A stretch of DNA of 64,000 bases from a virus (IMGVR_UViG_3300037067_019009:32001-96000), one strand, 5' to 3'. Shown: positions 18,855-45,991, counted from the first letter of the stretch. The notes: generated by a model not told the origin, from the letters alone. Made by a program: numbers and translations.

Positions 18855-19268
18855 TTAGTAGTTAGCCTCCGCTTCCTGCCCCAGCAGGCCCAATACTTTC
18901 GCGACAAGGTCTATGCTCGGATCACTCTTAAGCCGTATTTCAAGCATAGTTCCCGGATATTCCCCGTTTCCTCGCGTAATGGCAGCTTCCGGCGTATTTC
19001 TGGCCCACTCTTCATACTCTTCCCAGGACATACTCTCGACTTCTGGAAACTGCCCCCTCATATCGCAGCGATCCTTATAATCCTCATTAACCAGCCCTAT
19101 CTCAAAGTAGTCATCCACCTTACCACTGACTCCAAGAGCTGATAGAAGAGTCTCCAGTAACGAACGGGCAGCCGTTACTGAACTTTTCGTGCCCCATGTG
19201 AAAATCTCAGTAGACGAGTTAGTTATAAAATCCACCACAGAATGCACATTTACTATAAAACATTTCAT
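18855..19268 (-). CDS. ITNSS-motif protein, subtype A (paralog 1)
   Basis: HSVVDFITNSSTEIFTW...DDYF; similar to 39462 and 44968. Confidence 0.75.
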   Translation of the reverse strand: MKCFIVNVHSVVDFITNSSTEIFTWGTKSSVTAARSLLETLLSALGVSGKVDDYFEIGLVNEDYKDRCDMRGQFPEVESMSWEEYEEWARNTPEAAITRGNGEYPGTMLEIRLKSDPSIDLVAKVLGLLGQEAEANY

Positions 19269-20237
19269 CTATTCAATCACTCCTCTCGCTTTCTCAAAAA
19301 CCTTACGCATCTTCTCTATCTCCACTTCCTGCGTGGCTACATCCCCGCGCCTTGCTACACCGGCTGGATGCATAATAACACCTACGTACTCAACGCTAGG
19401 CGGTACTCCCACTATCTCAAGATCTTTCCTTGGTGCAAACATGCCGCTAGAGGCAGTAACAGAGAACTTACTCCCGAGGAATCGTTGGGCTGCCACTCTT
19501 CCTACAAGCACTATTACTTTAGGTTGAATCAGGCGCATCTGAATATTCAACCAACGGCCGCAAGCTCGTTGCTCCTCAGTGGTCGGTGGCCTGTCCTTAC
19601 CATTATTATCTGTAGGCCTGCACTTCACTATATTAGTTATATACAGGCCCGAGTAGCTAGCAGGTTCTCCATAGAACGTCAGTCTGTTGCTCGATGACTC
19701 TCTTGGAAATATTCCATCGAGAGCAGCGTTCAATATACCAGCTGTGGAGTTAGGAGTAGGCGCCTTATCCTCCAACCTTTTCCTGGTAACGGAATCCGGC
19801 ATCTTCAAGAAGCTACACCCCACGCTCGGCAGTGGAGTTCCCCTTGTCACATACGAAGGTGGGAAACAGTTCTCATGGTTTGCGCAGTACATGAAACATC
19901 GACTATTTATATACTCATCCTTATGACAAAATGGTATAAGAGTACGCTGTTCATACTGGCCAGGACCCTCTCCTATAGCCATTACTTTCGCATGTATAGA
20001 TCCGTCGGCGAACACGGACTCCCCATACCTATTATCGCACAGGTTACACTTATCACATGAGGAACAAGCATCGGAAGCAGCAGCCAGCAGGTTTTTCCTT
20101 ACTTCTATTATAAGCTCACCGCTTGGCATACTAAATGATTCTGTTAATAGCTTATATACACGTTCAGACGTAAACACTTCCGGCCACAGTTTCGCGGCCA
20201 TAGTTACCAATTTCTCTATCAAGTCGTGCTCATTCAT
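19269..20237 (-). CDS. family-4 uracil-DNA glycosylase with Cys-rich insertion
   Basis: CDKCNL, IGEGPG, ITNIVKCRP, DRPPT, IVLVGRVA, MHPA. Confidence 0.88.
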   Translation of the reverse strand: MNEHDLIEKLVTMAAKLWPEVFTSERVYKLLTESFSMPSGELIIEVRKNLLAAASDACSSCDKCNLCDNRYGESVFADGSIHAKVMAIGEGPGQYEQRTLIPFCHKDEYINSRCFMYCANHENCFPPSYVTRGTPLPSVGCSFLKMPDSVTRKRLEDKAPTPNSTAGILNAALDGIFPRESSSNRLTFYGEPASYSGLYITNIVKCRPTDNNGKDRPPTTEEQRACGRWLNIQMRLIQPKVIVLVGRVAAQRFLGSKFSVTASSGMFAPRKDLEIVGVPPSVEYVGVIMHPAGVARRGDVATQEVEIEKMRKVFEKARGVIE

Positions 20238-20269
20238 ACGATATTACCAAATCCATGTTCCACAAATGG

Positions 20270-20656
20270 CTAAGGCTCATAGTATTCTATTTCTAGATTC
20301 TCAGGTTTCATAGCATCAGCCACTCGCCTCTCCAACTCCCTATTGAAATCTTCGATTCCTCTAAGCGCCATCCCTACCGCCATTTTGTGCCAAAGCTTAA
20401 ACTTTTTGGTTTCCACTAGACGTAGAAATGCCTTACGTTTGTTTTGCAGCTGAGACCTTTCTTCCCTGCACTCCGCAACTGCTCCGGATTCCGGGTGGCG
20501 TATGCGAACTCCGGTCTCTACTTTATTTTGATTTTGTCCCCCCTTACCTCCAGCGCGAAAAGTCTCTACTATAAAGTCCCCTTTCTCTTTAGATAAGGAA
20601 AAGAGCAATTCTCTTTCTGGTTTCACCTGGCTATACTGCCTCCTCGTTAGTAGCAC
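20270..20656 (-). CDS. class I release factor catalytic-domain protein (GGQ peptidyl-tRNA hydrolase, ArfB/PrfH-like)
   Basis: [22 protein letters not shown]...ERSQLQNK..A; start uncertain (GTG 20626 possible). Confidence 0.88.
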
Positions 20657-21026
20657 GATTAAAATCTGCGTACTCCGCTATATAACCTTCTATAGAATCG
20701 TCAGAATACCCAAACAACTTACCAAGATACCAGGCCCTAGCTGCCTCTGGCAGACGCTCCTCAATCTCATTAAATGCTTTGATAAGTTCCTCGACAAAGG
20801 GTCGGTGCCACATCCAAACTCCTACCCAATCACAGCCAGCAAACTCTTCTACTAAGAAACTAATTCCATCTTCTTTTAGTAGATTCAAAACGTTACTAAG
20901 ATCGGCCTCATGAAGTTGTAGATAGGCGGCCAACTTGCCGCGCTTTACCATATAACTATATGCCTCAGCTTCTCCCATATGCCAGGACCCTATATCAACT
21001 GGCAGCATCATCGTTACTACCTCCAA
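20631..21026 (-). CDS. hypothetical protein
   Basis: GKLFGYS motif. Confidence 0.6.
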
Positions 21027-21327
21027 CCTTCTCCGTGCAGTATTTTTCCATCGCCGCTAGGTTTTCCCTAGCAACATCAGCAACCTCATCGCCAGGAAAC
21101 AATGCCGCTGCTAGAAAATCCAGTAGTTCATAATCGGATAGGCCTAACGTCACTGCAAGACGCAATAACCGCTCTCTACCTTGTACTGGGGGACAAATGC
21201 CTCTTTCAATTAGACTTATTTCCGAAGGCGATAGATCAAAATGCTTTCCAACTTCCTTCCAAAATGTCCTTAGGCTCATCTTGTTCCGTAGCCTATAAAA
21301 CTTAAGCAGTTCGCCAAAAGGTTTCAT
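20995..21327 (-). CDS. XRE-family HTH regulator
   Basis: FGELLKFYR...SLR...SEISLIERG. Confidence 0.8.
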   Translation of the reverse strand: MKPFGELLKFYRLRNKMSLRTFWKEVGKHFDLSPSEISLIERGICPPVQGRERLLRLAVTLGLSDYELLDFLAAALFPGDEVADVARENLAAMEKYCTEKVGGSNDDAAS

Positions 21328-21539
21328 TGAAAATCTATACTCTCAATTCTATTAGCGGCCTCTATGAGTAAATACTTATAAGACGCATCTACCGTATCAC
21401 AAGATAATGCGTATAAGATACGACTTAGCTGCTTATTGCTCATGAAACCCATAAGCCCTTCCTGAGCCAGAGATGCGACGGACTTAGAAGCTGCTTCGAA
21501 ATCCAGTAGCACTTTTCTATTATCAGCACTCTCACCCAT
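21324..21539 (-). CDS. hypothetical protein
   Basis: coupled ORF. Confidence 0.55.
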   Translation of the reverse strand: MGESADNRKVLLDFEAASKSVASLAQEGLMGFMSNKQLSRILYALSCDTVDASYKYLLIEAANRIESIDFQ

Positions 21540-22650
21540 CTTTACTTTCCTCCAAGCTGGCTTTTATGGCTTCGATTAGAACATCTGAACTCTTAATAGC
21601 GGCCAGAACCGCATCCTGTCCATGTAATCTCAACGGCTCATCCACCTTACCATCTGATTTCCACAGTCCTAGTGGGGCAAGAAGCTCCTTAGACATATTA
21701 AACTGATAGTAACTTTTGCTTCCTTCTACTATGGCTTTAGATATAAGCGCGACATTGAATAATAGAAGTATATTATCCGTTCCTACATTATAACGTACCG
21801 TGTACTCCGCCGTTTCATGTGGATGTCCGCCTAAACCCGCGTTATTCTTGTCAACGTATAACTTCACGGTATGTCCCACCACATGTCTGCTAGCTCCCGT
21901 CCCTTCCCAAATGAGGTCTTTCTTAGGAGCTGAGAATTTCAGAATAACTTTAGGATTAAACACCATGGCCCTTCCTCCAGGTTGTGTCTTACCGCCCCCG
22001 TAGGAATTAATATCTACTCTATCCTGGTTTATCATGACCATGGCACATTTGCCAAGGAATGGATTGATATCTCTTGTCGCTCTGCTCATAAGGCGAGCGT
22101 GTAGTCCTATGTTCTGAGACGCTATACCATCTTCCATAGTTTTATCCATTTCAGCCTTAGGTACCAGCATCGCTACTGAGTCTATAACGGCGACATCTAT
22201 TACATTCCTTGGAACTAACGTATCCTTATCTACAAGGAATTCTATAATCATATCCAAGGCCTCTTCGGCTATAGCAAACCCCTCTATAAATATGAGACTA
22301 TCTAAGTCCACACCCACCATACGGGCTTGCTCTATGGGAAACACTCCCTCTGATAGCGCGTACAGGCCAACACCACCAGCCTTCTGTGCCCCAGCTATGA
22401 TTTCCAGACCGGCGGTAGTTTTTCCGGTACCAGAATCTCCCCAAAAGACATGTATAGTTCCTCGCTTCAAACCACCATGTAGGGCTCGGTTTATGGCTAT
22501 GTTCGGCGTAGCTATAACACCAGGATTCATCAGGTCCGGACGCTCTCCAGCTATGAATACTGCTGGGCGGTCGTCTGTGGGGTGGTCTTTCTTCTTCTTC
22601 CTATTTAGTTTATCTATTACTTTAAGCAGCTCTGGATTATCTATTCCCAA
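21532..22650 (-). CDS. recA: RecA/UvsX-like recombinase
   Basis: GDSGTGKTT, VIDSVAMLVPKAE, GLHARLMS, INQ, PGGRA. Confidence 0.93.
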   Translation of the reverse strand: MGIDNPELLKVIDKLNRKKKKDHPTDDRPAVFIAGERPDLMNPGVIATPNIAINRALHGGLKRGTIHVFWGDSGTGKTTAGLEIIAGAQKAGGVGLYALSEGVFPIEQARMVGVDLDSLIFIEGFAIAEEALDMIIEFLVDKDTLVPRNVIDVAVIDSVAMLVPKAEMDKTMEDGIASQNIGLHARLMSRATRDINPFLGKCAMVMINQDRVDINSYGGGKTQPGGRAMVFNPKVILKFSAPKKDLIWEGTGASRHVVGHTVKLYVDKNNAGLGGHPHETAEYTVRYNVGTDNILLLFNVALISKAIVEGSKSYYQFNMSKELLAPLGLWKSDGKVDEPLRLHGQDAVLAAIKSSDVLIEAIKASLEESKDG

Positions 22651-22806
22651 TCAGCTCTCATCTCCTTATGGATAGGTACTCTGGCGACTCTATGAGTCTG
22701 GGTTATGGAGTCACTTATCAACCACCACGATTGGTCATTCACGAATGCAATCCTCTTCTAAAGCTCTTCAAAATGGGCATAAAAAACCGCGGTCTCATAA
22801 TATCGT

Positions 22807-23190
22807 TCATTGTCTATCCCATATTTCCTTAAAGTCCCTTACCCATCCAGACTTGCCCTCGCGCACTCCCAGTCCTCGAGTCTTTACATAGTTACGTATG
22901 TATTCTATATATTTCTCTGTTGGGTGGTACTCTAACCAAAACGTGATCTTATGCGTAGTGGGGTCTCTATCTTTTTCGTATTGCCTATGAATTATACTTT
23001 CATATATTACATTAGTATTCTCATCAAGAAGTTGTATAAATCCATCACTGGGTTTGGCACTAAAATCTACATCTTCATCTACAACACATGTAACAGCACC
23101 TTCTTCTATGTCGATTTCCCAATTTATTATAATAATAGGTACATCGGTTTCTTCATACTTAATAAATCCAAATTTTCCAGGAATCTTCAT
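22807..23190 (-). CDS. hypothetical protein (AT-rich)
   Basis: AGGAG RBS; low GC. Confidence 0.6.
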   Translation of the reverse strand: MKIPGKFGFIKYEETDVPIIIINWEIDIEEGAVTCVVDEDVDFSAKPSDGFIQLLDENTNVIYESIIHRQYEKDRDPTTHKITFWLEYHPTEKYIEYIRNYVKTRGLGVREGKSGWVRDFKEIWDRQ

Positions 23191-23239
23191 TTACATATTC
23201 TCCTTGTTTTTTACAGACAGCAAGTTCCCTGCACTAACC

Positions 23240-23536
23240 TCAATCCTGGACAGCCACGTGCTTGGGTTTGAAATATGGACAACGACCGCTCGCGTTTAAC
23301 TCATAACAACTACATCTATCGGTAATTTCTCCTGTTACATAGTTTCTAAAAACTGTCGTCTTTCCACTAGTACATATATGTCTATTATAAATTCCAGTAG
23401 TAACAAAGTTATCGCCTGCATAGCCGGAGGGTGGTAATACTTTATGGAATAAACAGTCGTTGCAACAAACATCTGTTTTTTCTCTTCGCTTTATACTGTT
23501 ATAAACTTTGATTGCCCTGTCTATATGATGATTCAT
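23240..23536 (-). CDS. Cys-rich hypothetical protein (AT-rich)
   Basis: CNDC...C...CYELNASGRC. Confidence 0.6.
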   Translation of the reverse strand: MNHHIDRAIKVYNSIKRREKTDVCCNDCLFHKVLPPSGYAGDNFVTTGIYNRHICTSGKTTVFRNYVTGEITDRCSCYELNASGRCPYFKPKHVAVQD

Positions 23537-23541
23537 TACTA

Positions 23542-23883
23542 CTACACTCCACTATTACTAGAATCACTTTCCTGATCGAAGCTATCATAAACCTCTTTAG
23601 CTTTTTTCTGTTCTTCTTCGGTGAACACTTCAGGATTCCACATAACTTTTCTATTCAGGAACATAGTTTCTGGTTCTATACAAACTCCATCCTTAAAGAG
23701 TTCCTCAGGATAAGCAGTGAATATTGTTTCATCCTCAAACTCAACCTCGTACAACGGACCGACTTCTTCATAATCGAAATCCTCATGTGGAGCTTCACGG
23801 ATCATTCGGCATTTTTTGCCCCTATGTTCGCTGCCACCATCAAACGGCGTATCAAATCTCAAATTGTAATCATGCACACACAT
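23542..23883 (-). CDS. hypothetical acidic protein
   Basis: GGAGG RBS. Confidence 0.6.
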   Translation of the reverse strand: MCVHDYNLRFDTPFDGGSEHRGKKCRMIREAPHEDFDYEEVGPLYEVEFEDETIFTAYPEELFKDGVCIEPETMFLNRKVMWNPEVFTEEEQKKAKEVYDSFDQESDSSNSGV

Positions 23884-23914
23884 TTTGAGAATCCTCCAGA
23901 TCTCCCAATTTCAC

Positions 23915-24265
23915 TCAGACCAAACGCTCCCATGTATAGAGTATTACATGGCATTTAGTATCGCCGAATTGCACGTAGTGCTCTAGCTCTTCTCTCCCAG
24001 TACGGTCCCAATAACATGGTTCCAACGAGTGGATTACAGATATTCTAGGAAATACATGCTGTATAAGATAGTCTAAGGTAATCTCGCCTGTCGTAAACAT
24101 TATCTTCGCGGCATGCGCGTCTTCTGGATAGTACCAGAACTTAGTATCAGGAGAATACAACTCCAGCCCAGCCTTTATCCTTTCGGCCATCTGCTGCTGC
24201 TCTTTGCGCTCTGGATGCCAAAAATAAAGTTCCCTGATATAACTATGCAAGTCCTTATTCTTCAT
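23915..24265 (-). CDS. hypothetical protein
   Basis: packed ORF. Confidence 0.6.
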   Translation of the reverse strand: MKNKDLHSYIRELYFWHPERKEQQQMAERIKAGLELYSPDTKFWYYPEDAHAAKIMFTTGEITLDYLIQHVFPRISVIHSLEPCYWDRTGREELEHYVQFGDTKCHVILYTWERLV

Positions 24266-24282
24266 TAAACTCTACCACTACC

Positions 24283-25197: not shown

Positions 25198-25225
25198 GTA
25201 ACTTATAGTCCTTTCTTACTACCTC

Positions 25226-25929: not shown

Positions 25930-25966
25930 CTATCGAATTATTCCTTCCACACCTCAAATACCTTGT

Positions 25967-31548: not shown

Positions 31549-32157
31549 TCACACCCATTTCTTCGCCTCCTTATAACCTTGCAGCTTATGGTTATAATTC
31601 TGCATTTCCAGCTGGATCTTAACGATATCCTTTAGCGCTAGCGCCGGGATCATAGTAGTCCTGAACGTATAAGGTAATCCACCAGAGGCTATTATACCTA
31701 TGCTGCGATGAATCGCGTTCATATCTACAGCTGTTCCGCATGCCTCATTATACTTTCGCTCATCACATAGTGGAGCCTTAATATCCATAGCAATATAAGA
31801 CACAAGGCCATCGGAACAGAGCTCAGAAATGATATCAGGATTACTGCCATTAGTGTCGAGCTTTACTTTAAAGCCTCTCTCCCTCAACACCTTTAGGAAA
31901 GGCATGAGTTCCGGCCGTACGGTAGGCTCTCCCCCAGTTATTACCACATAACATTGATTAGGCGTTCTATCAATGCGGTATTGCAGCACTTCGAGCCAAC
32001 GATCTATCTCACCGCGCTCAGATAGAGCTACAAAAGGCCACAGTCCCTTATTATGGCACCAAGGGCATCTGAAGTTACAGCCTTGGGTGAACAAGACACA
32101 GGCTACCTCCCCTGGGTAATCTGATAAGCTGCATGGCTCGTAGCCGCCGATGAACAT
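31549..32157 (-). CDS. nrdG: anaerobic ribonucleotide reductase activating enzyme
   Basis: SLSDYPG, GCNFRCPWCHN, TGGEPT, KLDTNG; start moved to ATG 32157 (the track start lies inside a tRNA). Confidence 0.93.
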   Translation of the reverse strand: MFIGGYEPCSLSDYPGEVACVLFTQGCNFRCPWCHNKGLWPFVALSERGEIDRWLEVLQYRIDRTPNQCYVVITGGEPTVRPELMPFLKVLRERGFKVKLDTNGSNPDIISELCSDGLVSYIAMDIKAPLCDERKYNEACGTAVDMNAIHRSIGIIASGGLPYTFRTTMIPALALKDIVKIQLEMQNYNHKLQGYKEAKKWV

Positions 32158-32189
32158 TACAGTAATCCTACCTTCCATCTTTTGAAAAC

Positions 32190-32268
32190 TGGGGTGGGTG
32201 GCGAGATTCGAACTCACGATCTCCGGGGCCACAACCCAGCGCTCTAACCAGCTGAAGCTACACCCACC
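32190..32268 (-). tRNA. tRNA-His(GUG)
   Basis: G-1/C73, GTGGGTG/CACCCAC, loop TT-GTG-GC, TTCGAAT, CCA. Confidence 0.95.
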
Positions 32269-32636: not shown

Positions 32637-34769
32637 TTAGCTCATGTCATGTGTAACCCTCCTACCCACATCTTGCAGAGTATAGTGGCTGCGAAGAGCA
32701 AACTCAGCTTGCTTACCATTATTCCACTGACTTACCGGGCGCAGGTACCCAACTACGCGTGAATACACTTCTGTAGCGGCCTCACAGGTGGGGCATTTGT
32801 CAACCTCGCCATCCAGATAACCATGTGTAGGACAGATAGAAAACGACGGGGTTATAGAGAAGTAAGGAAGCCTATAGTTATCGCAAACAGACCTCACGAA
32901 CTTCTTTACCGCTTGTGGATCAGGCTCAGCCTCACCAAGAAACACGTGCAGACAGCTGCCGCCAGTGTAGAGTGTTTGCAGTTCATCCTGGGCATCCAGC
33001 ACCCCGAATATATCGAAAGTCGTGTCTACTGGGAGCTGCGTAGAGTTCGTATAAAACGGTTCAGGGCTTTCAGGGTACGCGAATTTTATATCCGGGTACA
33101 GCTGCTTATCCAGTCTGGCTAGCCGGTAACTGGTACCTTCCGCTGGTGTTGCCTCCAAGTTGTAAAGGCTGCCTGTCTCTTCCTGATAAACGGTAAGCTT
33201 ACCCCTCATGAAATTGAGAACCTCAACAGCAAAAAGCCGACCCTCTTCAGTCGATATATCACTTCCTAGCAGATTAATGCACGCCTCGTTCATTCCTACG
33301 AGCCCTATCGTTGAGAAGTGGTTGGTCCAGTACTTACCGAACCTCCTGAAAGTATCTCTCAAATAAAAACATGTGTATGGGTAAAGCTTCTTGCTGGTAA
33401 ACTGTTCAAGGACATCTCTTTTTATTTCGAGACTCTCTTTAGCTATATCCATAAGCTTACCTAGGCGTACAAAGAACTCCTCTTTGCTTTCAGATAGGTA
33501 GCCCAGCCTTGGCATGTTGATAGTGCAAACTCCCAGCGACCCAGTTAGGCTGTTGGCTCCGAACAGGCCACCACCTCTGCGCTCTAACTGGTCAATCCGT
33601 AGCGATAAGCGACAACACATGCTTCTCGTATCGTCCGGGGACATATCAGATCCTACAAAGTTGGCGAAATACGGAATGCCGTACTTCGCTGTAACTTCCC
33701 ACAGCTTATCTAACTCAAGGTTATTCCAATCAAAATCTTCCGTTATACTATAAGTTGGAATAGGGAAAGTAAATACTCTTCCACATGCATCCCCTTCGGC
33801 CATGACTTCTAGAAAAGCACAGTTGAGCATGGCCATTTCCTTTACAAACTCACCGTAGCATCTGTCCTTGTACTCGCCACCAATAACCACTGGCTGGCTG
33901 GCCAAATGTTCAGGGGGCTGCAAATCAAATGTCAAATTAGTGAAAGGCGTCTGAAATCCTACTCGCGTTGGTACATTTATATTAAAAATAAACTCTTGGA
34001 TCGCTTGCTTTAGTTCTTCATAACTAAGATCATCATAATACACAAACGGAGCTAGAAGCGTATCAAAGTTAGAGAAAGCAGAGGCTCCCGCTACTTCACC
34101 CTGTATAGTGTAGAAAAAGTTAACGATCTGGCCAAGAACAGCACGTAAATGTTTAGCAGGCTTAGATTCTATTTTACCGGCGGCCCCTCTAAACCCAGAG
34201 ACAAGTAGATCTTGCAAAGACCATCCGGAGCAGTAATTCGCAAGTAGACTCAAGTCGTGTATATGAAGATCGCCTCTCACATGGGCCGTCTTTACTCTCT
34301 TAGGATAAATCTTATTAAGCCAATAGGTCTCGCTTACTGTACTGGCCACATAGTTATTAAGTCCCTGCAACGAGTAGGCCATATTAGAGTTCTCTCTTAC
34401 TTTCCAATCAAGCCTTTCCAGATAGTTATCTACCAAAGCTAGATCGGACTTCTTTACAGCCTCTCGCATCTGGGCATGCTGTTCTCTATATATGATATAA
34501 GACTTGGCTGTCGCCCTAAACGGGGTAGCAAGCAGCACTTCTTCGACTATATCCTGCACCTGTTCTACCGAAGGTACCTCGTCTGTGACAGACACCTGCA
34601 TGAGAGATAGTACTTTGTTAGTCAAGGACTTAGCGATGTCGGTAGAAAACTCTCCAGATACTTTCCCAGCAGCCAGAAGAGCAGCAGTTATTTTCCTTGA
34701 ATCGAACTGGACGAGGTTACCGTCCCGCTTGCGTATTTGAGAGAATGCTGGTTTAGCATCAACGGCCAT
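32637..34769 (-). CDS. nrdD: class III anaerobic ribonucleoside-triphosphate reductase with ATP cone
   Basis: IRKRDG ATP cone, HIHDL, RSMCCRL, EATPAEG, glycyl radical YSRVVGYL; start at MAVDAK. Confidence 0.97.
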   Translation of the reverse strand: MAVDAKPAFSQIRKRDGNLVQFDSRKITAALLAAGKVSGEFSTDIAKSLTNKVLSLMQVSVTDEVPSVEQVQDIVEEVLLATPFRATAKSYIIYREQHAQMREAVKKSDLALVDNYLERLDWKVRENSNMAYSLQGLNNYVASTVSETYWLNKIYPKRVKTAHVRGDLHIHDLSLLANYCSGWSLQDLLVSGFRGAAGKIESKPAKHLRAVLGQIVNFFYTIQGEVAGASAFSNFDTLLAPFVYYDDLSYEELKQAIQEFIFNINVPTRVGFQTPFTNLTFDLQPPEHLASQPVVIGGEYKDRCYGEFVKEMAMLNCAFLEVMAEGDACGRVFTFPIPTYSITEDFDWNNLELDKLWEVTAKYGIPYFANFVGSDMSPDDTRSMCCRLSLRIDQLERRGGGLFGANSLTGSLGVCTINMPRLGYLSESKEEFFVRLGKLMDIAKESLEIKRDVLEQFTSKKLYPYTCFYLRDTFRRFGKYWTNHFSTIGLVGMNEACINLLGSDISTEEGRLFAVEVLNFMRGKLTVYQEETGSLYNLEATPAEGTSYRLARLDKQLYPDIKFAYPESPEPFYTNSTQLPVDTTFDIFGVLDAQDELQTLYTGGSCLHVFLGEAEPDPQAVKKFVRSVCDNYRLPYFSITPSFSICPTHGYLDGEVDKCPTCEAATEVYSRVVGYLRPVSQWNNGKQAEFALRSHYTLQDVGRRVTHDMS

Positions 34770-34936
34770 AAAAATAAGAAGCCCCCTATAAGTTAGTAAC
34801 AGCCGGTCTATGACCGGCCGCATACTATATTATAGGCATCATTTCCCTAAAACTAAGGAGGCTGGCTATTTTTTCTTATAATTATTTATAGTCTTGGAAC
34901 ATCCGTTACACATGTAACTCCAGCAAGCCCGTGCCG

Positions 34937-38067: not shown

Positions 38068-38457
38068 CTAGTCACTGTCACAGTTGTCTTCCACAGCTGG
38101 ATTAGAAACAGTTGTAAGGTCAGTATCCCATGTCCACTCGACATCCGCAAAATTAAGCGCGTAGTCTTCGACTGCCATATCGAAAATGCCATGGCTTCTA
38201 AGAATATCACGGAAGTCGGGATCATTATAATGAAAGAAAAGGTCATGAAGATCAAACTTCTCTCCGTGTTTACCCCAATAAAACTTCCCGTACTCAGTCT
38301 GAATCCACTCAGTGACGACATGGCTAAGCGTTTCAAAGAACCGCCTATTCGAACCACAGCCTCCCTGCTCATATCCAGCAACCTTGGCGTATATTACCTT
38401 AAGACGAGGATTGTCTTCATCTCTAGTATCTGGAATAAGGTAAGCTATATTATTCAT
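38068..38457 (-). CDS. hypothetical protein
   Basis: ATGA-coupled to upstream ITNSS gene. Confidence 0.6.
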   Translation of the reverse strand: MNNIAYLIPDTRDEDNPRLKVIYAKVAGYEQGGCGSNRRFFETLSHVVTEWIQTEYGKFYWGKHGEKFDLHDLFFHYNDPDFRDILRSHGIFDMAVEDYALNFADVEWTWDTDLTTVSNPAVEDNCDSD

Positions 38458-38825
38458 CCCATATGCTCCCTATGGCCATTGAAGACCTCTTCAATCCAAT
38501 CGAACAATGAGTAAGGGATAGTGTTATCGCTAGTACTCTCGATAACCAGCACCTCTTTCTTGTCCTCAGCAAGCTTTTTTATCCAGTAATTATCTTGACA
38601 GTAATAGTTATCTGCCACTAAAGCGGTGGCTGAGATTAAGTAGGGTTTTTTGAAGCAGCCACTGAAGGAGTAACTACTAGCACTCTGCTTATTAAACAGC
38701 CCGAGTAGATCACGGAGCATTTTCTCTACTGCTTCTGGTGTCTTATCCGTTTCGCAAACGAACAACTCAGAGCTCGAGTTGGTGATAACATCCACCATAG
38801 AATCTATCGCAATAATTAGTCTCAA
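38454..38825 (-). CDS. ITNSS-motif protein, subtype B (paralog 2)
   Basis: DSMVDVITNSSSELFVC...SDNTIPY..FDWIE. Confidence 0.75.
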   Translation of the reverse strand: MRLIIAIDSMVDVITNSSSELFVCETDKTPEAVEKMLRDLLGLFNKQSASSYSFSGCFKKPYLISATALVADNYYCQDNYWIKKLAEDKKEVLVIESTSDNTIPYSLFDWIEEVFNGHREHMG

Positions 38826-39075: not shown

Positions 39076-39102
39076 GTCCCATTTCCTATCTCTCGCACCT
39101 AA

Positions 39103-39435: not shown

Positions 39436-39461
39436 CTGCCAGCCCTCCCGTAATCCTTTGA

Positions 39462-39893
39462 TTACCCATCTCGCCAGGCTTCCTGCCTGAATAGAGCAAG
39501 GAAAGCCTTTGCTATATTGTAGCTATCCTTCCCTTTTGGAGTGATGAACAACATTGTATGAGGATAGCCATATTCATTTTCTGGGTAGTTCGCCTGACTC
39601 AGGTTCGCCTTATAGGCTTCGAATTCTTCTTTCGTAGCGTCAGCCGGCAGGTCATCAAGCAGACCATCCATCCATTCCGAAAGTAAAACGTCTTCACCCT
39701 CTTCAGTGAGCTCTAAACCAAAATCGAAATAATCATCCGGGCAGCCCGGCACTCCCATGGCATTCATTATTTCCGACATAACGCTTTTGGCAGCAGCCAC
39801 GCTGCTCTGCGTTGCCCAGGTAAAAATAGTCGTAGACGAGTTTGTTATTACATCCACAACAGAAGATATAGACACCTTAATCCCTTGCGTCAT
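39462..39893 (-). CDS. ITNSS-motif protein, subtype A (paralog 3)
   Basis: SSVVDVITNSSTTIFTW...DDYF. Confidence 0.75.
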   Translation of the reverse strand: MTQGIKVSISSVVDVITNSSTTIFTWATQSSVAAAKSVMSEIMNAMGVPGCPDDYFDFGLELTEEGEDVLLSEWMDGLLDDLPADATKEEFEAYKANLSQANYPENEYGYPHTMLFITPKGKDSYNIAKAFLALFRQEAWRDG

Positions 39894-40068
39894 CTTATTA
39901 GCGCTCCTTATCCATCAGTGTGTAGTTCCTTTTCTCCGAGACAAACGCGGCACACCCACAAACGACACACTTACCAAGCCTCAGCCTACGATAGTCTACC
40001 AGCCGCATACCGAATTTTGTGGCACACTCTTTACACATAAGCCCTATTACTTCCGACCACCTCATCTG

Positions 40069-40374
40069 TTATGAACCTGCCTCTCCTCCGCCTTCAATCT
40101 GTTCCGCTATGCGCCTAGCTTCCATCTTATACTCCGCGTTGTTACATATGTAATCGTAATCTACGCAGGAGACACAGCCCGAGCCCTTGACGGTATTCAT
40201 TAGAAACCTCGCCTGCGTCTTAGCCTGGCAGTTCTCACAAACAACTGGCGTTTGGCCATAGATAGCCACCAACTCCTCCAGACGTTTTATTCTCGTCTCA
40301 TAGCACTCTCTGCTATTTGCTTCATGAGTATCATAGCTATTATGGCATACCCTACAGTATATTGGCTTTTCCAT
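40069..40374 (-). CDS. Cys-rich hypothetical protein
   Basis: three CxxC pairs. Confidence 0.55.
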   Translation of the reverse strand: MEKPIYCRVCHNSYDTHEANSRECYETRIKRLEELVAIYGQTPVVCENCQAKTQARFLMNTVKGSGCVSCVDYDYICNNAEYKMEARRIAEQIEGGGEAGS

Positions 40375-40381
40375 TGCGACC

Positions 40382-40771
40382 CTACCTTAATGACTTCTTA
40401 TACAGCTTGGGGTAGGTTTCCTTCATCCAAGCTATCCCATCTTCCGTTTGCGATACTTGAGTTGCTAACTCACAGAGAGTTCTGGTAAGAGCAGATGTAT
40501 CATAGCTAATCTCCGCTTTGCCTGTGACTACATCTTCCACATTTGAATCGAACCCGTCCTGAAGCAAACCATCGATATCAGTAATCGCGCATTTCGCTAT
40601 CGTCACTGATTCCTCGACTACTTTAGGTATTTTCTCTATAGCATCCATTAGACCCTGGACCGGAAAGTTATACTCTATTGCTGATTCTACTGCTTCTAGT
40701 TCTTCGATTGGTGCAGAATCATACCAATCCCGCGCATCTCGCAGCGCCTGTTCTACGATAGCTAACTTCAT
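40382..40771 (-). CDS. hypothetical protein
   Basis: GAGGTGG RBS. Confidence 0.6.
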   Translation of the reverse strand: MKLAIVEQALRDARDWYDSAPIEELEAVESAIEYNFPVQGLMDAIEKIPKVVEESVTIAKCAITDIDGLLQDGFDSNVEDVVTGKAEISYDTSALTRTLCELATQVSQTEDGIAWMKETYPKLYKKSLR

Positions 40772-40789
40772 AGTTTCACCACCTCTCTT

Positions 40790-40992
40790 TTAACTATTCA
40801 ACCACCTGCGTAGATTTCGTACGTGTACAGCACATAGCACTACTACAGATAGTAAGAGCCCCCACTGTCTTGTATTTACTGTGTAGATGCCCCATAATAC
40901 TTGACTGCCTAAACCGGATATTGGACCAGCGATAGTTTTATTTCCCATCAACCACATGTTTAAGATAGTACTTACTGATAGCACCCATGTCA
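40790..40992 (-). CDS. small membrane protein (PnuC/SWEET-like short repeat)
   Basis: W.LS...I...WLMGNK..G...GL..Q.LW..Y....QWG pattern; start at MTWVL approximate. Confidence 0.5.
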
Positions 40993-41041
40993 TTTCACTT
41001 CTCCTGTGCCTACTTCTCAGCACACATCATATTACCGGCAC

Positions 41042-41416
41042 CTATAGCATCAGCTCCTCGGAAACGTCTCCATTCACTGCAATGTGCAGTATATTGCCGG
41101 ACTCGAATCCAACTACCTCGTAACATATATCAGTCATCAGACCTCCTCCAGTGATAGCTGTAGATAAGTAGTCTAACAGTAACTCTAGCCCACTTTCTAC
41201 AACGCGAAGCGGTACTCTTACTACCCTGTCTATGCGTGCATTAAAATCTACTGCGTCCAGAAGCTGCTTAGTCGTGAGTGGGGCTTCTAGTATGCTATAA
41301 CCGGCCTCCGTTTCCTTCAAGACTCCAGAAAAATCTATAGCCTCAATCGCTTCCAGCACCATACGTCCTAACTCATCGGCTATTTCCCTTCGTCTTTTTT
41401 CATGCGGGCATATCAT
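41042..41416 (-). CDS. hypothetical protein
   Basis: packed ORF. Confidence 0.6.
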   Translation of the reverse strand: MICPHEKRRREIADELGRMVLEAIEAIDFSGVLKETEAGYSILEAPLTTKQLLDAVDFNARIDRVVRVPLRVVESGLELLLDYLSTAITGGGLMTDICYEVVGFESGNILHIAVNGDVSEELML

Positions 41417-41440
41417 GCGTACACCTTCCCGTAAGCACCT

Positions 41441-41761
41441 TTAACAATGTGCTTTACGTTGGTTTTCCTCTCTTTTTACCTTCACTTGTTTAAGCGCTTC
41501 CGCTTTAGTTGCAAATAACTTATCTTCCTTACAGGTGTCCAATTTACCATTATCACAATCGAAAAATTTATAAAATACCTGCCCAAGAGCATTATAAGTT
41601 ACACTCACTAGTTCGACCTTGGTTAGCTTCCAGTCATTAAATATACTTTTCACTCCACATGTTTTGCATGGTTTATCATAAACCACTATCGGTTGTAACC
41701 ACCAGACTTTTGTCCGTGGATTGCATATATTGAATTTAAGTTCGGGTTTGATAATTGTCAC
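41441..41761 (-). CDS. hypothetical protein (AT-rich)
   Basis: GGAGG RBS; LFATKAEA. Confidence 0.55.
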   Translation of the reverse strand: MTIIKPELKFNICNPRTKVWWLQPIVVYDKPCKTCGVKSIFNDWKLTKVELVSVTYNALGQVFYKFFDCDNGKLDTCKEDKLFATKAEALKQVKVKREENQRKAHC

Positions 41762-41765
41762 TAGT

Positions 41766-42113
41766 CTACCTCCACAACTTTAGTTCGCTTTGAGGAACCA
41801 TATCCTCTAAGCTAATTATAGTGACCGGATAAGCTCCTTCGGCGGAAGGCTCGCAGTCTATAAAAGTGACTTCAGTCTCAGAGTCTTCCAGTTCTTCCCT
41901 CCAATACTTATGCACTACATCCTTCGGGAGCGGGAAGTCCTCATCTAGTGGTGAAACCTCCAGCACCTCCTCTTGGAATCTGCATACCGCAAGGCAAAAA
42001 ACTTCTGGAAGATGATGGCCCTTGGACCAGTAACCCCCAGGCTCCCCAGACAAGCAGAACATATCTATATTTAGTTCGTAAGGCTCTTGATAGCCCTCAG
42101 GATACACACCCAT
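41766..42113 (-). CDS. hypothetical acidic protein
   Basis: SKGHH...GAYPVT. Confidence 0.6.
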   Translation of the reverse strand: MGVYPEGYQEPYELNIDMFCLSGEPGGYWSKGHHLPEVFCLAVCRFQEEVLEVSPLDEDFPLPKDVVHKYWREELEDSETEVTFIDCEPSAEGAYPVTIISLEDMVPQSELKLWR

Positions 42114-42994
42114 AACCCACTTCCTTTATCTTGAGATATAATTCTACTAAGAGACCCATACCTCTCTTCCAAGCAGCTCAGCAGAAGCCCATGGATCTTA
42201 TCTACATCCGGCGAATACTGAAGTTTGGAGCTAAGGTAGAGAGCCTCTAGTTCGATTTCCCGTCTCTTGAAGTGGGCTTCTATGTCTTCAGCGGCCCACT
42301 CCCCACGCCTGATACTTTTCAGCTGCTCGCGATTCCTCTCCAGGTCCAAGTCTCCTTCTTCCAGTATCTGCTCTGCCTCAGCTATAAGGCGAATCACATG
42401 GTAACCAAACTTGACATCGTATCCGTACTCCTCTATCATCTCTCTCCGCTTGCTGCCTGGCTCAGGATTCTTGCTTTTCATCTTAGAAACCTGGCTGTAA
42501 GCGTAACCTTTAAATGTATGCCAGACTTTCTTTGACAGAAATAGCTTCCTATTTTTTCTCACCATCTTCCCTACTTTAGAAGTGTAAAGCAGACAGCGGT
42601 CTGGTACAAATAAGGAGTCTATCATATTGGGGTTACCGTTCATGGTAAGGAGAAAATATTTGCCGATATTGTAAATTGCGAAGTCATGTTCTACGTGTGT
42701 GTCTGGGTGGATGATATGTTGGGGATTATACTGCTCGAAGGAAGGGCCGTAGGGGCCGAATCCCTGGACCTCTTTTCTGAGGCTCGGGAACAGGTAGTCT
42801 AGCGGAGGCGTAGCAAATCCGTAGATATCCCGGTCGCTCCCGCCGGAGGATACCGCGTAAGCCTCACTGCCCATGATGACTTCGTAATCCAGGCCATCAT
42901 AGATGAAGGGTGGCGGGGTCGCTAGCAGTTGGCTATCGATAAACTTACGAACAATACTCGACATGCCTTCCTCACTAATCCTCGTAATCTTCAA
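42071..42994 (-). CDS. DNA polymerase beta-superfamily nucleotidyltransferase (RlaP/YcgL-like)
   Basis: GSEAYAVSSGGSDRDIYG, GNPN, FKGYA, K..YHVIRL, LKSIRRG. Confidence 0.85.
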   Translation of the reverse strand: MKITRISEEGMSSIVRKFIDSQLLATPPPFIYDGLDYEVIMGSEAYAVSSGGSDRDIYGFATPPLDYLFPSLRKEVQGFGPYGPSFEQYNPQHIIHPDTHVEHDFAIYNIGKYFLLTMNGNPNMIDSLFVPDRCLLYTSKVGKMVRKNRKLFLSKKVWHTFKGYAYSQVSKMKSKNPEPGSKRREMIEEYGYDVKFGYHVIRLIAEAEQILEEGDLDLERNREQLKSIRRGEWAAEDIEAHFKRREIELEALYLSSKLQYSPDVDKIHGLLLSCLEERYGSLSRIISQDKGSGLWVCILRAIKSLTN

Positions 42995-43175
42995 TACCTA
43001 CTAGAGTATAGATATCGATCCACTTCTTACCACAAGCAAAGCATTCAGATCTGCCTGAAGCTGTATCTCCATCCGCCTCCAAGGGAGAAATGCCAGTGAC
43101 ATCCTCCGATAGGCAGTATGGGCACCTGAGTCCGCGGCTTTTCAGGTAATTCTTTTTTTGTTCCTCTGTAAGCAT
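42975..43175 (-). CDS. small zinc-ribbon protein
   Basis: CPYC...CFACGKKW. Confidence 0.65.
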   Translation of the reverse strand: MLTEEQKKNYLKSRGLRCPYCLSEDVTGISPLEADGDTASGRSECFACGKKWIDIYTLVGIEDYED

Positions 43176-43402
43176 CCATTTCCTCCCTTACTATCTGGTG
43201 TAGTCACAATGCTATAAACAATCCATGGATACACCACGTATGTACGCCATGATTCCGGAACCACTATATAGATATCTCTTTTACAATGGTGGCATACTAA
43301 GTAGGCAGATTCACTGGGGTGGCGCTTAGCCCCGAGCTCTGCGGCGTTCTTAGCCTCTGGGAGGCTAAGAAAAGTCGGGAGCTTGCTCAGACTGTAAGAC
43401 AT
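43142..43402 (-). CDS. hypothetical protein
   Basis: packed ORF. Confidence 0.55.
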   Translation of the reverse strand: MSYSLSKLPTFLSLPEAKNAAELGAKRHPSESAYLVCHHCKRDIYIVVPESWRTYVVYPWIVYSIVTTPDSKGGNGCLQRNKKRIT

Positions 43403-43422
43403 ACCTTCCCTCTATTCTACGC

Positions 43423-43773
43423 TCAATAATCTCTGCCGGCACTCCAGAACCTGCTAGGAAGCATGAAAGCTTCTACTACCTCGTTATTCTCGACATCAGT
43501 TTTCGTAGCGGGAAAACGTTTACCACAGCGTCGGCACTGCCACTCATAAAAATCCAGGTTGCCTTCAGCATCAAAAGTATGGTAGCTTGGAAGTGGAGCG
43601 ACACTGCCGCCTCCTCCACAGCGTGCAAAACACATATTCCCCCATGCCACCTGGAAGCTACTCGCCACTAGATGTATCATCGCCAGATCGTGATCGCACC
43701 CGAACCTTTGTAACACACTATTGAGTATCCGCTTTATCGCTTCCATCACCACTACCCCACGGCAGTCCGACAC
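43423..43773 (-). CDS. hypothetical zinc-binding protein
   Basis: GCDHD...QCRRCGK. Confidence 0.55.
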   Translation of the reverse strand: MSDCRGVVVMEAIKRILNSVLQRFGCDHDLAMIHLVASSFQVAWGNMCFARCGGGGSVAPLPSYHTFDAEGNLDFYEWQCRRCGKRFPATKTDVENNEVVEAFMLPSRFWSAGRDY

Positions 43774-44090
43774 GCCGTAACTACAAACGTCCTATCACAA
43801 AAGCTACAAGTGGCTGTCTCTAAGACTTGTAGCTCTCTGTTGTAAGTCCCACACACCGGACATGTCCATGTATAGACTGAGGCTACCATGTCCACACCTA
43901 AACATACCAACTTCTCCGGAGCATAGCAACCCATCGCAGACGCTATCTCCTCTATTGTATCTTTGCCTCTCGCCTTATTTGGATTTAGCCTGGCCGTGCC
44001 ATCATCCCCGATATCCAAATAGAGCAGCTTATGGATAGTTCCCAGTATACGTACCAACTCATCTTTAGATGGGTCTCTGAACTCCTTCAT
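43752..44090 (-). CDS. hypothetical protein with C-terminal zinc ribbon
   Basis: ATGA-coupled to the radical SAM gene; CPVC...CSFC. Confidence 0.6.
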   Translation of the reverse strand: MKEFRDPSKDELVRILGTIHKLLYLDIGDDGTARLNPNKARGKDTIEEIASAMGCYAPEKLVCLGVDMVASVYTWTCPVCGTYNRELQVLETATCSFCDRTFVVTACRTAVG

Positions 44091-44971
44091 ATCGATATTC
44101 CTCTCTTACCTAACCATGAGTAGACATCTTCTCCAGCATTTATAGAGAAGCTGGATGGATAGACTTTCATCTCAACCAGGTCTATAAACTGGCTCATTAG
44201 CTCAGGCTCGTATAGAGATAGCTGGAGCCAGCTCGTGTGCTTTTTCAGTTCCTCATAGAAGTTAGCGCCAAACGCTATCTTCGATAACTGGTCCTTGCTC
44301 ATGTTCTTAAGGACGGAAAATAGATAGGTATTATCTATGTCTTTGTGAGGAGCCCTTCCTTGGTTGCCATATGGCAACAGGACAAAGTAGTCCACGGTGG
44401 TAAACCACGCGTTAAATATGTCCAGGAAGTAGTCGATACTTTCCTTATCCGATATTATCAGATGGAAATTGAGCTTAATCTCAGCGTCACTAAACTTCTT
44501 AGCGGCACTCTCCCAGTAATCCTTGAGATGTGGGTGGCACGATATGGCTACCCCGCCACAATAGGTTTTCATAGCCGCCACCAACTCATCTGTCACAGAC
44601 ATACCGTTAGTCGTACAGTTCGGCACTATACCGAAGCCATGCAAAAGCTCTAAAACCTTAACAAAATCTGGATGTTCGGTGGGCTCCCCACCTCCAAGGG
44701 CACACTGAAATGGACGCTGATTATCATCCATACCCCCAAATATCTTGGAGAGCTTCTCTAAGATGTTATCCGCGTGCTGGCTGGTATCTCTGGAGTCCGT
44801 ATAGCATTGCCCACAATTCCCATGGCACTTTGATGTCAGCTTAATATCGTAAAACTCAGGAAATTTAAGCTCGGTAATAGGCTTACTTACATCCAGCGCC
44901 AGTCTGATGGTCTTGCCTCCACAGAAGATACCTCTGTAATTAGCTTCCTTTTCAGTTCTAACCCGTATCAT
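44087..44971 (-). CDS. radical SAM enzyme
   Basis: CHGNCGQCY (CxxxCxxC), GGGEPTEHPDF, TTNG; ATG overlaps the stop of the ITNSS gene. Confidence 0.92.
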   Translation of the reverse strand: MIRVRTEKEANYRGIFCGGKTIRLALDVSKPITELKFPEFYDIKLTSKCHGNCGQCYTDSRDTSQHADNILEKLSKIFGGMDDNQRPFQCALGGGEPTEHPDFVKVLELLHGFGIVPNCTTNGMSVTDELVAAMKTYCGGVAISCHPHLKDYWESAAKKFSDAEIKLNFHLIISDKESIDYFLDIFNAWFTTVDYFVLLPYGNQGRAPHKDIDNTYLFSVLKNMSKDQLSKIAFGANFYEELKKHTSWLQLSLYEPELMSQFIDLVEMKVYPSSFSINAGEDVYSWLGKRGISI

Positions 44972-45378
44972 ATTTCCTCGCACTCATCAATATCGAAGAT
45001 TTGTAGCATACTATTTTCTAGATCGATTGGTAGTCCGCATTTAGTCGTGACTACTAGCAGTGTGCCTGGAGGTGGGCCACCCTCACTGAACGCCATGTCT
45101 ACAGCTTCTCGGTCAAACCCCCGGCTTTCTACTATCCTGTCTATGACCGCTTCTGAAACTTCCCCGGCTAGCGCCTGACGTACCCTATCTTCCCACCCCG
45201 GACGAGTCTCCAGGCTGATATCGAAGTAGTCATCAACGCTGCCAGTCACTCCTAACGCATGCATTATCTCTTCCAACATGGATTTAGCAGCTTTTACAGC
45301 TGTTTCTCTAGGCCATGAGAAGATCTCAGTAGATGAGTTCGTTATAAGATCCACAATGCTATGAACAAGTATCTTCAA
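44968..45378 (-). CDS. ITNSS-motif protein, subtype A (paralog 4)
   Basis: HSIVDLITNSSTEIFSW...DDYF. Confidence 0.75.
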   Translation of the reverse strand: MKILVHSIVDLITNSSTEIFSWPRETAVKAAKSMLEEIMHALGVTGSVDDYFDISLETRPGWEDRVRQALAGEVSEAVIDRIVESRGFDREAVDMAFSEGGPPPGTLLVVTTKCGLPIDLENSMLQIFDIDECEEI

Positions 45379-45605
45379 AGCTTTCTCTCCTTTACAGCAG
45401 TATCATGTATATCAACGAGGACATCATACGATGCTCCCTCGAAGTGCCCATAGTCTCTCGGCTCTGTACATATTTTTAACTCCAGGCAGACATCACACTC
45501 TGTCTCATAGAACGTGGCAACACCATGTACAAGAACGGCCGTATGTCCTTTGGCGGCCGAAGCACATTCCTCGCAAATCACTGAAGGATACCACTCGTTA
45601 CTCAT
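45375..45605 (-). CDS. small zinc-finger protein
   Basis: ICEEC...CDVC...TEPRDYG; GGAGAGG RBS. Confidence 0.6.
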   Translation of the reverse strand: MSNEWYPSVICEECASAAKGHTAVLVHGVATFYETECDVCLELKICTEPRDYGHFEGASYDVLVDIHDTAVKERKL

Positions 45606-45613
45606 ACCCTCTC

Positions 45614-45991
45614 CTACCCTTGATGGCTGCGGCATGCATTGAACAGCCGCTCTATCCAATCAAACATCTCATAGGGGATGGTGTTATCAGATTCACTCTC
45701 TATAATAAGAACCTGCTCATCCTTCTCCTCTACCCGCTTAGCCAGACTGGCCTTATAGCTACTGCCTAAGTAGTAATAGTCCAGAATAAACCGTAAAGAT
45801 TCCATCTTCGGCTCTTTAAATACCTGCTCGAATGCGTAATCGGTCTCAAACTGCCTATTATATAGATACAGCAGCCCAACTAAAAGCTGCCTGACTACAC
45901 CCACCGGTTTATCGGTATCGCAGATAAACAACTCCGAACTGGAGTTGGTTATTACGTCTACTATGGAGTTTATGCACATAAGTAATTTCAT
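45614..45991 (-). CDS. ITNSS-motif protein, subtype B (paralog 5)
   Basis: NSIVDVITNSSSELFIC...SDNTIPY..FDWIE. Confidence 0.75.
   Translation of the reverse strand: MKLLMCINSIVDVITNSSSELFICDTDKPVGVVRQLLVGLLYLYNRQFETDYAFEQVFKEPKMESLRFILDYYYLGSSYKASLAKRVEEKDEQVLIIESESDNTIPYEMFDWIERLFNACRSHQG

Follow-up and report, generated by a model that had tools for sequence, protein, structure and literature searches.

A radical SAM enzyme of large phages and a linked family of candidate client proteins with an N-terminal ITNSS motif

Radical S-adenosylmethionine (SAM) enzymes acting on proteins or peptides have been a rich source of novel chemistry, and the general kind of system in which such an enzyme serves dedicated, ribosomally made clients is already known. 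In the maturases of ribosomally synthesized and post-translationally modified peptides (RiPPs), such as SuiB with SuiA (streptide), SkfB, CteB and MftC with MftA, the substrate gene or genes lie directly upstream of the enzyme gene and are translationally coupled to it, and a conserved N-terminal recognition element is followed by a variable remainder. Anaerobic sulfatase-maturating enzymes (anSME/AtsB) modify Ser-type sulfatases, full-length proteins encoded next to the enzyme, at a Ser that belongs to a brief invariant motif close to the N-terminus, and the glycyl-radical activases (PflA/PFL, NrdG/NrdD, GrcA) are small radical SAM enzymes acting on a specific residue of a partner protein. 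To our knowledge, phage radical SAM enzymes with defined protein clients are almost unknown. Here we describe such a candidate pair in a 64,000-nucleotide stretch of viral DNA (IMGVR_UViG_3300037067_019009:32001-96000, hereafter the window), which corresponds to bases 32001-96000 of a 212,668-base IMG/VR virus estimated to be 84% complete. A radical SAM gene is coupled in the window to members of a family of small proteins, called ITNSS proteins here after their N-terminal motif. The arrangement resembles that of the RiPP maturases, and binding is predicted to occur by addition of a beta-strand to a sheet of the enzyme. The features of the module and its immediate surroundings are as follows.

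18855..19268, minus strand: ITNSS protein, subtype A, 137 aa, ending ANY; dispersed copy, flanked by uracil-DNA glycosylase (UDG)-superfamily and dCMP deaminase genes
38454..38825, minus strand: ITNSS protein, subtype B, 123 aa, ending HMG; dispersed copy
39462..39893, minus strand: ITNSS protein, subtype A, 143 aa, ending RDG; dispersed copy, modelled as a monomer
44087..44971, minus strand: radical SAM enzyme, 294 aa, ATG at 44971; assigned from PF04055, the ortholog alignment (A3), the AF2 model and Foldseek
44968..45378, minus strand: ITNSS protein, subtype A, 136 aa, ending EEI; stop overlaps the radical SAM start; copy used for the complex prediction
45375..45659, minus strand: 94 aa open reading frame (ORF) between the B and A copies; no family match; outside the conserved neighbourhood clusters and so not part of the module
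45614..45991, minus strand: ITNSS protein, subtype B, 125 aa, with SDNTIPY..FDWIE, ending HQG
45988..46554, minus strand: 188 aa ORF upstream of the array; matches only phrog_14016 (unknown function); not conserved across loci

The five paralogs proposed in the initial annotation were all confirmed as minus-strand ORFs. Their alignment bears out the near-invariant N-terminal motif, with S10, V12, D13, I15, T16, N17, S18, S19 and F23 invariant, as well as the division into subtype A (marked by DDYF; 18855, 39462 and 44968) and subtype B (SDNTIPY..FDWIE; 38454 and 45614). Three of the five copies end in Gly, namely in RDG, HMG and HQG, as had been noted. A six-frame scan of the window for the pattern D-x-[IVL]-T-N-S-S returned exactly five sites, each at the N-terminus of a coding-strand ORF, where we estimate a chance expectation of about 0.002 sites. 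When all 212.7 kb of the genome were searched with a profile, the same five copies came up and no sixth one. The methyltransferase label earlier given to the ORF at 45988..46554 found no backing, as this ORF matches no Pfam or NCBIfam family.

The reported ATGA overlap is present: the A copy at 44968-45378 stops at the TGA 44968-44970, and the radical SAM gene begins with the ATG 44971-44969. Since this overlap places the ATG at 44971, the enzyme gene is 44087-44971 and encodes 294 aa. The protein begins MIRVRTEKEANY, as its orthologs do. A GTG start at 44983 suggested by the ORF finder was rejected, the ATG at 44971 being the start that fits the orthologs. The 39462 copy lies about 4.2 kb downstream of the end of the enzyme gene and is therefore counted as a dispersed copy. 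The 18855 copy is found within 18312-20237 (minus strand), between the genes of a 322 aa UDG-superfamily protein and the dCMP deaminase, a context that is not conserved in other phages.

Linkage of the two families was assessed in both directions over a total of about 160 loci. The client-seeded set comprises 81 loci, 80 of them IMG/VR loci found with the motif family and one an ENA contig, which represent 43 lineages after dereplication at 85% identity of the enzyme. Most of these loci carry two to six tandem ITNSS genes, and in 75 of the 81 an ortholog of the radical SAM enzyme lies directly downstream in the same orientation (phmmer E 1e-35 to 1e-106). Of the six exceptions, two are truncated by the end of a contig. 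The enzyme-seeded set, found with the radical SAM alignment alone, comprises 79 loci, of which 78 have one to six ITNSS genes beside the enzyme, mostly upstream and in a few lineages directly downstream. The sole exception on this side is G050, a complete genome of 180 kb with three unlinked ITNSS genes. In G028, a genome of 305 kb, the array has no radical SAM gene and the ortholog is found 100 kb away; the other exceptions are fragments, 22-60% complete. Both families are present in all 12 examined genomes that are at least 93% complete, and in three independent ENA/Logan contigs an ITNSS gene is followed at once by a PF04055 gene of 275-286 aa. The link to a radical SAM enzyme put forward in the initial annotation is thus an observed one, a two-gene module conserved across dozens of unrelated phage lineages.

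Clustering of the same-strand ORFs within 5 kb on either side at the 43 dereplicated loci identified only two conserved families, the ITNSS proteins (137 copies) and the radical SAM enzyme (43 of 43 loci). The next-best cluster occurs at only 7 of the 43 loci, and the methyltransferase-like and zinc-finger ORFs of the window operon, which were considered as parts of the module, were therefore placed outside it. No protease or exporter gene is conserved in these neighbourhoods. Pairing of subtypes A and B, suggested by their proximity in the window, is not obligatory, since single-gene loci carry either tail type or neither.

None of the five window copies or 93 of their relatives matches a Pfam, NCBIfam, PHROG or PADLOC family, and full-text searching of the literature found no description of the motifs, of the module or of its counterparts in the RB43/KP15 group of phages, in keeping with the earlier suggestion of an undescribed system. 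A word-indexed search returned 586 relatives, all unnamed or hypothetical except for one evident mislabel. An exhaustive profile search returned 2,755 representatives of 50%-identity clusters at E <= 0.001, and 1,658 at E <= 1e-10. In 231 retrieved members the motif extends to H-S-h-V-D-h-I-T-N-S-S-(T/S)-E-h-(F/Y), with T, N, S and S at 100% and the D always at about residue 11-16. These members have a median length of 147 aa (range 73-332), a median isoelectric point (pI) of 4.6 and a median net charge of -12. Only the N-terminal motif of 15 residues is invariant; the remainder is hypervariable, column identity averaging 18-19% and insertions being large. A further element, SDN(T/S)IP, is conserved in subtype B, where it stands at the end of the last strand. 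An exact C-terminal Gly is present in 91 of 182 ORFs of the dereplicated loci and in 183 of the 231 top matches, and the Gly tails are of two types, RxH(L/M/I)G and (E/D)(A/G)x(Y/R/F)(D/N)G.

The family is essentially virus-only. Among prokaryotes (185,579 species, one genome each) just six matches were found, all on contigs of 2.7-41 kb from metagenome-assembled genomes, and the ESM Atlas neighbours of the ITNSS model are viral hypothetical clusters only. The deposited phage genomes (50,697 records) gave no match to the window DNA or, by tblastn, to three different ITNSS proteins. A search for longer forms turned up tandem ITNSS-ITNSS fusions and no fusion of the enzyme to an ITNSS protein, an empty result there being weak evidence. 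Three metagenomic proteins (P0235, P0236 and P0129) carry two ITNSS modules in one polypeptide, in the order B-A or A-B with the second motif internal, and in P0235 and P0236 the RxHLG tail of the first module is lost.

The AF2 model of the 39462 copy (pLDDT 79, predicted template modelling score 0.67) is a small beta-alpha sandwich. It places V-I-T-N-S-S-T in a seven-residue loop between strands 11-14 and 22-25, which is the least confident stretch of the N-terminus; in this monomer model the motif is therefore a hairpin loop and not the buried strand which the initial annotation had considered. For this model, Foldseek returned no PDB match at E <= 0.001. The VIA-align wide search reached a best Z of 5.4, with generic ferredoxin-like alpha/beta sandwiches only; a phage SAM lyase at Z 4.1 was too weak to be counted as a match. 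As regards a beta-grasp fold, a MoaD-related protein (1v8c) was reached only with the domain that follows MoaD (residues 87-165), at Z 4.3. No RiPP recognition element (RRE) fold, as found in adaptor proteins, was recovered by the structure searches.

The identity of the enzyme as a radical SAM protein is established by a PF04055 match (32.1 bits against a cut-off of 29.5) together with the CxxxCxxC and GGGEP motifs. In an alignment of 37 orthologs (A3), C53, C57 and C60 are invariant, and CxxxCxxCY, FQxAxGGGEP, PNYTTNG and the C-terminal SLYEPE...SSF are common to all. No conserved cysteine occurs after residue ~150 in this alignment, so that the motif of a SPASM or twitch auxiliary cluster is absent. 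NCBIfam gave only sub-threshold matches, confined to the cluster-binding half, to SPASM peptide maturases, viperin, MoaA and NirJ; those to the SPASM maturases span only residues ~40-150 and are far below the cut-offs. The best PHROG is phrog_7293. In the AF2 model (pLDDT 94), an N-terminal sheet of three strands (7-11, 16-21 and 24-29) stands ahead of the barrel. Foldseek returned 257 PDB matches at E <= 0.001, and all those listed are radical SAM enzymes: SuiB is the best (E 7.5e-14, TMq 0.73), followed by SkfB and CteB and then by BlsE, viperin, DesII, anSME (4k39, E 1.3e-7) and EpeE. ESM Atlas places the enzyme in viral-only clusters that are structurally near radical SAM/SPASM proteins.

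Assignment of the enzyme as a prokaryotic viperin was rejected, as the PADLOC pVip model scores 43.9 bits over positions 5-100 of 257 only and NF038283 gives 35.8 against 180. Among deposited phage genomes the window enzyme has just two weak matches. A gene of Salmonella phage Arash annotated as 'methyltransferase' (OQ632216.1:84880-85194) is 41% identical to residues 42-148, the cluster-binding part, and may be a different type of radical SAM protein.

The enzyme gene appears 'fractured' in four related phages (L006:10830-13055, L042:6659-8945, L078:10296-12561 and L081:12928-14343). The N-terminal fragment ends like an N-intein and the C-terminal fragment opens like a C-intein, with MKIKKITK..HNYF..NG. 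A free-standing Cys/His-rich ORF of 291-320 aa lies between the fragments in L006, L042 and L078; in L081 the gap is 150 bases long and has no ORF of at least 60 aa. Precomputed Pfam Hint/intein matches are on record for the L006 fragment. At two further loci (L052:939-3088 and L077:10309-12449), an insert of ~1.2 kb with small ORFs splits the SAM-binding motif (FQIAIG | STGEP), and it could be an intron with a homing-endonuclease gene.

The binding mode was predicted by folding the enzyme (alignment A3) and the adjacent A copy at 44968-45378 (alignment A4) jointly with SAM and a 4Fe-4S cluster. The interface score (ipSAE) is 0.64, as compared to 0.01 for the best of three controls; this mark is reached by 58 of 80 solved complexes and by 2 of 110 mismatched pairs, a calibration that is rough here, where custom alignments and small molecules are included. 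Agreement of contacts between runs is at least 61% and the partner pLDDT at least 66, and the model supports, short of showing, binding of the ITNSS protein to the enzyme. Confidence is highest for the contacts between client residues 4-10 (L-V-H-S-I-V-D) and enzyme residues 24-29 (K-T-I-R-L-A), in which the client strand is predicted to extend the N-terminal sheet. Over the whole stretch 3-21, the client meets enzyme residues 21-29 and the barrel at 44, 46, 93-97, 122-124, 143-146, 170-174, 198-203 and 233-240. Most of the invariant residues of the enzyme (T25, R27, F44, D46, Q93, A95, N122, T124, G144-A146, N172, H174, V201, L203 and G239) are in this interface, and therefore the invariant surface of the enzyme meets the invariant element of the client in the model. 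Such an invariant-to-invariant contact fits a substrate, and an inhibitor or an adaptor would be compatible with it too. We consider it very probable that the ITNSS proteins and the enzyme constitute one functional module with direct contact.

A second system has a bearing on the module. The initial annotation likened the motif to that of phage FVSNSSSSSF proteins, said often to lie beside radical SAM genes; these proteins exist, and they co-occur with a sister enzyme in cultured phages. A hypothetical protein of Vibrio phage D479 matches the window enzyme weakly over its full length (25% identity over 90% of the length) and is a strong member of phrog_7293 (E 3e-146). Upstream of it are genes for five acidic paralogs (pI 4.0-4.4, 123-161 aa), all starting MK(I/V)RxGFVSNSSSSSF. 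A gene for a CYTH-domain protein is located in D479 between one FVSNSSSSSF gene and the sister radical SAM gene (L172:2698-3183). Members of the sister enzyme family were identified in 173 deposited phages, for the most part pseudo-T-even phages infecting Klebsiella, Enterobacter, Cronobacter, Citrobacter and E. coli, and the carriers include RB16, RB43, Lw1, KP15, Miro and GAP161. RB16, Lw1, Miro, KP15 and GAP161 have two true S-N-S-S-S-S-S-F genes each, ~20 kb from the enzyme gene; in RB16 the motif proteins are RB16p106 and RB16p111 and the radical SAM protein is RB16p156. Motif proteins were thus found in all six examined phages with the sister enzyme (these five and D479). T4, RB69 and RB32 gave only spurious matches to the degenerate pattern, with non-Ser codons or stops, and KVP40 gave none. 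None of these four phages is among the sister-enzyme matches listed, and only KVP40 is excluded by the tally, in which the single Vibrio record is D479; T4, RB69 and RB32 we take to lack the enzyme.

The FVSNSSSSSF proteins, which are phrog_7397-like, are all annotated as hypothetical, and no functional study of them was found in the literature search. RB16p106 ends in GGGYDG and D479_0132 in GAGRNG, resembling the (Y/R)(D/N)G tails of subtype A. In hhalign, the ITNSS and FVSNSSSSSF profiles align over the 12-residue motif alone (probability 2.8%), and a search of RB16 and D479 with the ITNSS profile came back empty; that the two client families descend from one ancestor is therefore plausible only, as far as their sequences can tell. 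Each of two distant radical SAM clades is accompanied by its own version of a protein family with an N-terminal h-(S/T)-N-S-S-(S/T)-x-x-F. Motif and enzyme clade switch together around a shared N-S-S core, which counts in favour of the substrate reading given next.

On balance, the likeliest reading, which we hold to be somewhat probable, has a maturase-like radical SAM enzyme recognize and modify the N-terminal hairpin of the ITNSS proteins, its protein substrates. One enzyme per phage would serve one to six diversified, acidic, dedicated clients. The first strand of the client (..I-x-I-H-S-x-V-D) would join the N-terminal sheet of the enzyme (G-K-T-x-R-x-A) as an extra beta-strand, comparable to the binding of RiPP leaders, and the tip of the hairpin, the invariant I-T-N-S-S-(S/T), would thereby be set in the barrel that holds SAM and the [4Fe-4S] cluster. 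A 5'-deoxyadenosyl radical could then take a hydrogen from the Asn or from one of the Ser residues, and the product may be, for example, an oxidized Ser, an electrophilic residue formed by dehydration, an epimer or a cross-link. The modified proteins would act via their variable bodies, and a role in host takeover or counter-defence is a guess only. The anatomy of the family, with a short invariant N-terminal motif, a variable body and one to six copies per enzyme, looks like that of clients, and the closest solved folds to the modelled enzyme are peptide maturases; both would favour this reading. The proposal of the initial annotation that the motif is a site of recognition or modification gains from the two-gene linkage and from the predicted docking into a conserved cavity, and the part that concerns modification is what we infer. 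The broader picture, of a virus-exclusive modification system in which a stand-alone enzyme without SPASM modifies the Asn/Ser tip of a hairpin in diversified acidic phage proteins, with a sister FVSNSSSSSF branch in cultured T4-like phages, is to our judgement evenly balanced.

Several points weigh against a substrate role. Three of the five window copies, and copies in the genomes G028, G044 and G050, are far from the enzyme gene. According to alignment A3, the enzyme is without the auxiliary clusters used by most of its protein- and peptide-modifying relatives. The complex is a predicted one, and a conserved peptide could be placed in a conserved cavity if it were an inhibitor or an adaptor as well as if it were a substrate. 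In the monomer model of the 39462 copy, the stretches on both sides of the motif form strands of the client's own sheet, and docking may therefore require an unfolded or strand-swapped client. The conserved Gly tails RxHLG and (Y/R)(D/N)G fall outside the model and are not explained by it. Finally, both the occurrence of a modification and its nature are inferred.

The alternative that survives best, which we regard as unlikely yet worth keeping in sight, is that the ITNSS proteins are unmodified partners of the enzyme: interchangeable specificity or regulatory subunits that dock by their N-terminal strand and either present another substrate (a small molecule, a nucleotide, a nucleic acid or a host protein) or gate the active site. 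The same co-occurrence and the same complex would be expected in this case, and neither tells whether the ITNSS protein is a substrate, an adaptor or an inhibitor. The presence of several diversified paralogs for each enzyme would suit alternative specificity subunits, the structural neighbours that come after the maturases (BlsE, viperin and DesII) act on small molecules, and the N-terminal half of the enzyme has the pVip score given above. However, the invariant part of the client is a short hairpin predicted inside the barrel and not a surface patch; the adaptors PqqD and MftB are RRE domains, a fold that the ITNSS model does not show; and no further gene that could supply or use a small-molecule product is conserved within 5 kb on either side.

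We consider it distinctly improbable that the ITNSS proteins are themselves small enzymes of a pathway shared with the radical SAM enzyme, with the D, T, N, S and S residues in a catalytic or ligand-binding loop (for instance in nucleotide or DNA modification), or that they are self-processing proteins which cleave at N|S or S|S or form a pyruvoyl group. The invariant polar residues after a beta-strand do resemble an active-site loop, subtype B adds its second element, SDN(T/S)IP, and one window copy lies between UDG-superfamily and dCMP deaminase genes. But the nucleotide-metabolism context of that copy is not conserved, the hypervariability outside the motif leaves no second element invariant across subtypes, and one to six divergent paralogs per genome would be unusual for a pathway enzyme. 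The complex prediction, moreover, puts the loop inside the radical SAM enzyme, which would be unexpected for an independent active site. A role as ubiquitin-like modifiers that act through the C-terminal Gly and are handled by a phage E1-like enzyme, which the initial annotation had raised as a weaker link, is very improbable and already disfavoured: about half to four fifths of the members have Gly as their last residue, in conserved tails of the RxHLG or (Y/R)(D/N)G type, and the window encodes a ThiF/E1-like protein (59658-60329), but a ThiF-like match occurs in only 2 of the 12 near-complete module genomes, in only one of them above the cut-off, no E1, E2 or JAB gene is conserved near the arrays of the 43 loci, and there are single-ITNSS loci without a terminal Gly.

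All long ORFs of the window are on the minus strand and the GC skew is negative throughout. Its gene content, from scans of the family libraries, is of the large lytic phage type and includes a UvrD-like helicase, a RecA/UvsX-like protein, an RNA ligase, a dNMP kinase and the dCMP deaminase, in addition to the following.

13745-15364, minus strand: GroEL-like chaperonin
31549-32232, minus strand: NrdG-like radical SAM activase, 227 aa, directly downstream of NrdD
32637-34823, minus strand: NrdD anaerobic ribonucleotide reductase, 728 aa, with ATP-cone
42071-42994, minus strand: RlaP-type nucleotidyltransferase
47082-47984, minus strand: inosine-uridine nucleoside hydrolase
48217-50310, minus strand: ankyrin-repeat protein, 697 aa
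59658-60329, minus strand: ThiF/E1-like protein, 223 aa; PF00899 73.6 bits, PADLOC E1-E2 models over the Rossmann part only

The presence of NrdD followed by an NrdG-like activase suggests a host living without oxygen. The ITNSS-linked enzyme was rejected as the activase of NrdD, to which a separate NrdG-like gene is adjoined; it scores only 14.9 bits with TIGR02491, whose cut-off is 126.1. The same phage genome has a third radical SAM gene, with a frame of 296 aa, outside the window (G000:C1:116629-117126).

In this module, co-occurrence is near-perfect both ways, the client sequences run into thousands, the recognition element is clear and the docking prediction is specific. That the clients vary in copy number and have hypervariable, acidic bodies hints at effectors tuned to different host targets, which is a guess; if they are so tuned, the modification would matter for the way in which large phages take over their hosts or evade them. 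Since the sister system is present in RB16, RB43 and Lw1, the question is directly testable by genetics and mass spectrometry.

Among the known systems, the glycyl-radical activases differ in the partner, as the ITNSS family has no glycine loop of the RVxG type. The (C/S)xPxR motif recognized by anSME is likewise absent from the ITNSS family, none of 93 members has a Pfam sulfatase match, and anSME has two auxiliary clusters in a SPASM domain where the ITNSS-linked enzyme has none. The FVSNSSSSSF proteins are similar in kind: they too are multi-copy, acidic proteins of 120-170 aa with an invariant N-terminal h-(S/T)-N-S-S-(S/T)-x-x-F. The two radical SAM enzymes, however, are only 25% identical, the sister enzyme is ~100 aa longer, and its motif genes are ~20 kb away in phages of the RB16 type, whereas the ITNSS genes are mostly adjacent. 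With the RiPP maturases the module shares its gene order and coupling, but it is not a classical RiPP system; the initial annotation had spoken of a RiPP- or cofactor-maturation-like one. What is new in comparison is that the clients are full-length proteins (100-330 aa, within a family range of 73-332 aa, the modelled copy being predicted to fold at pLDDT 79) and not short peptides; that the enzyme is without SPASM/twitch cysteines and a full RRE domain; that no protease or exporter is conserved nearby; that the module is confined to viruses; and that the invariant element itself, instead of a downstream core, is the predicted ligand of the active site.

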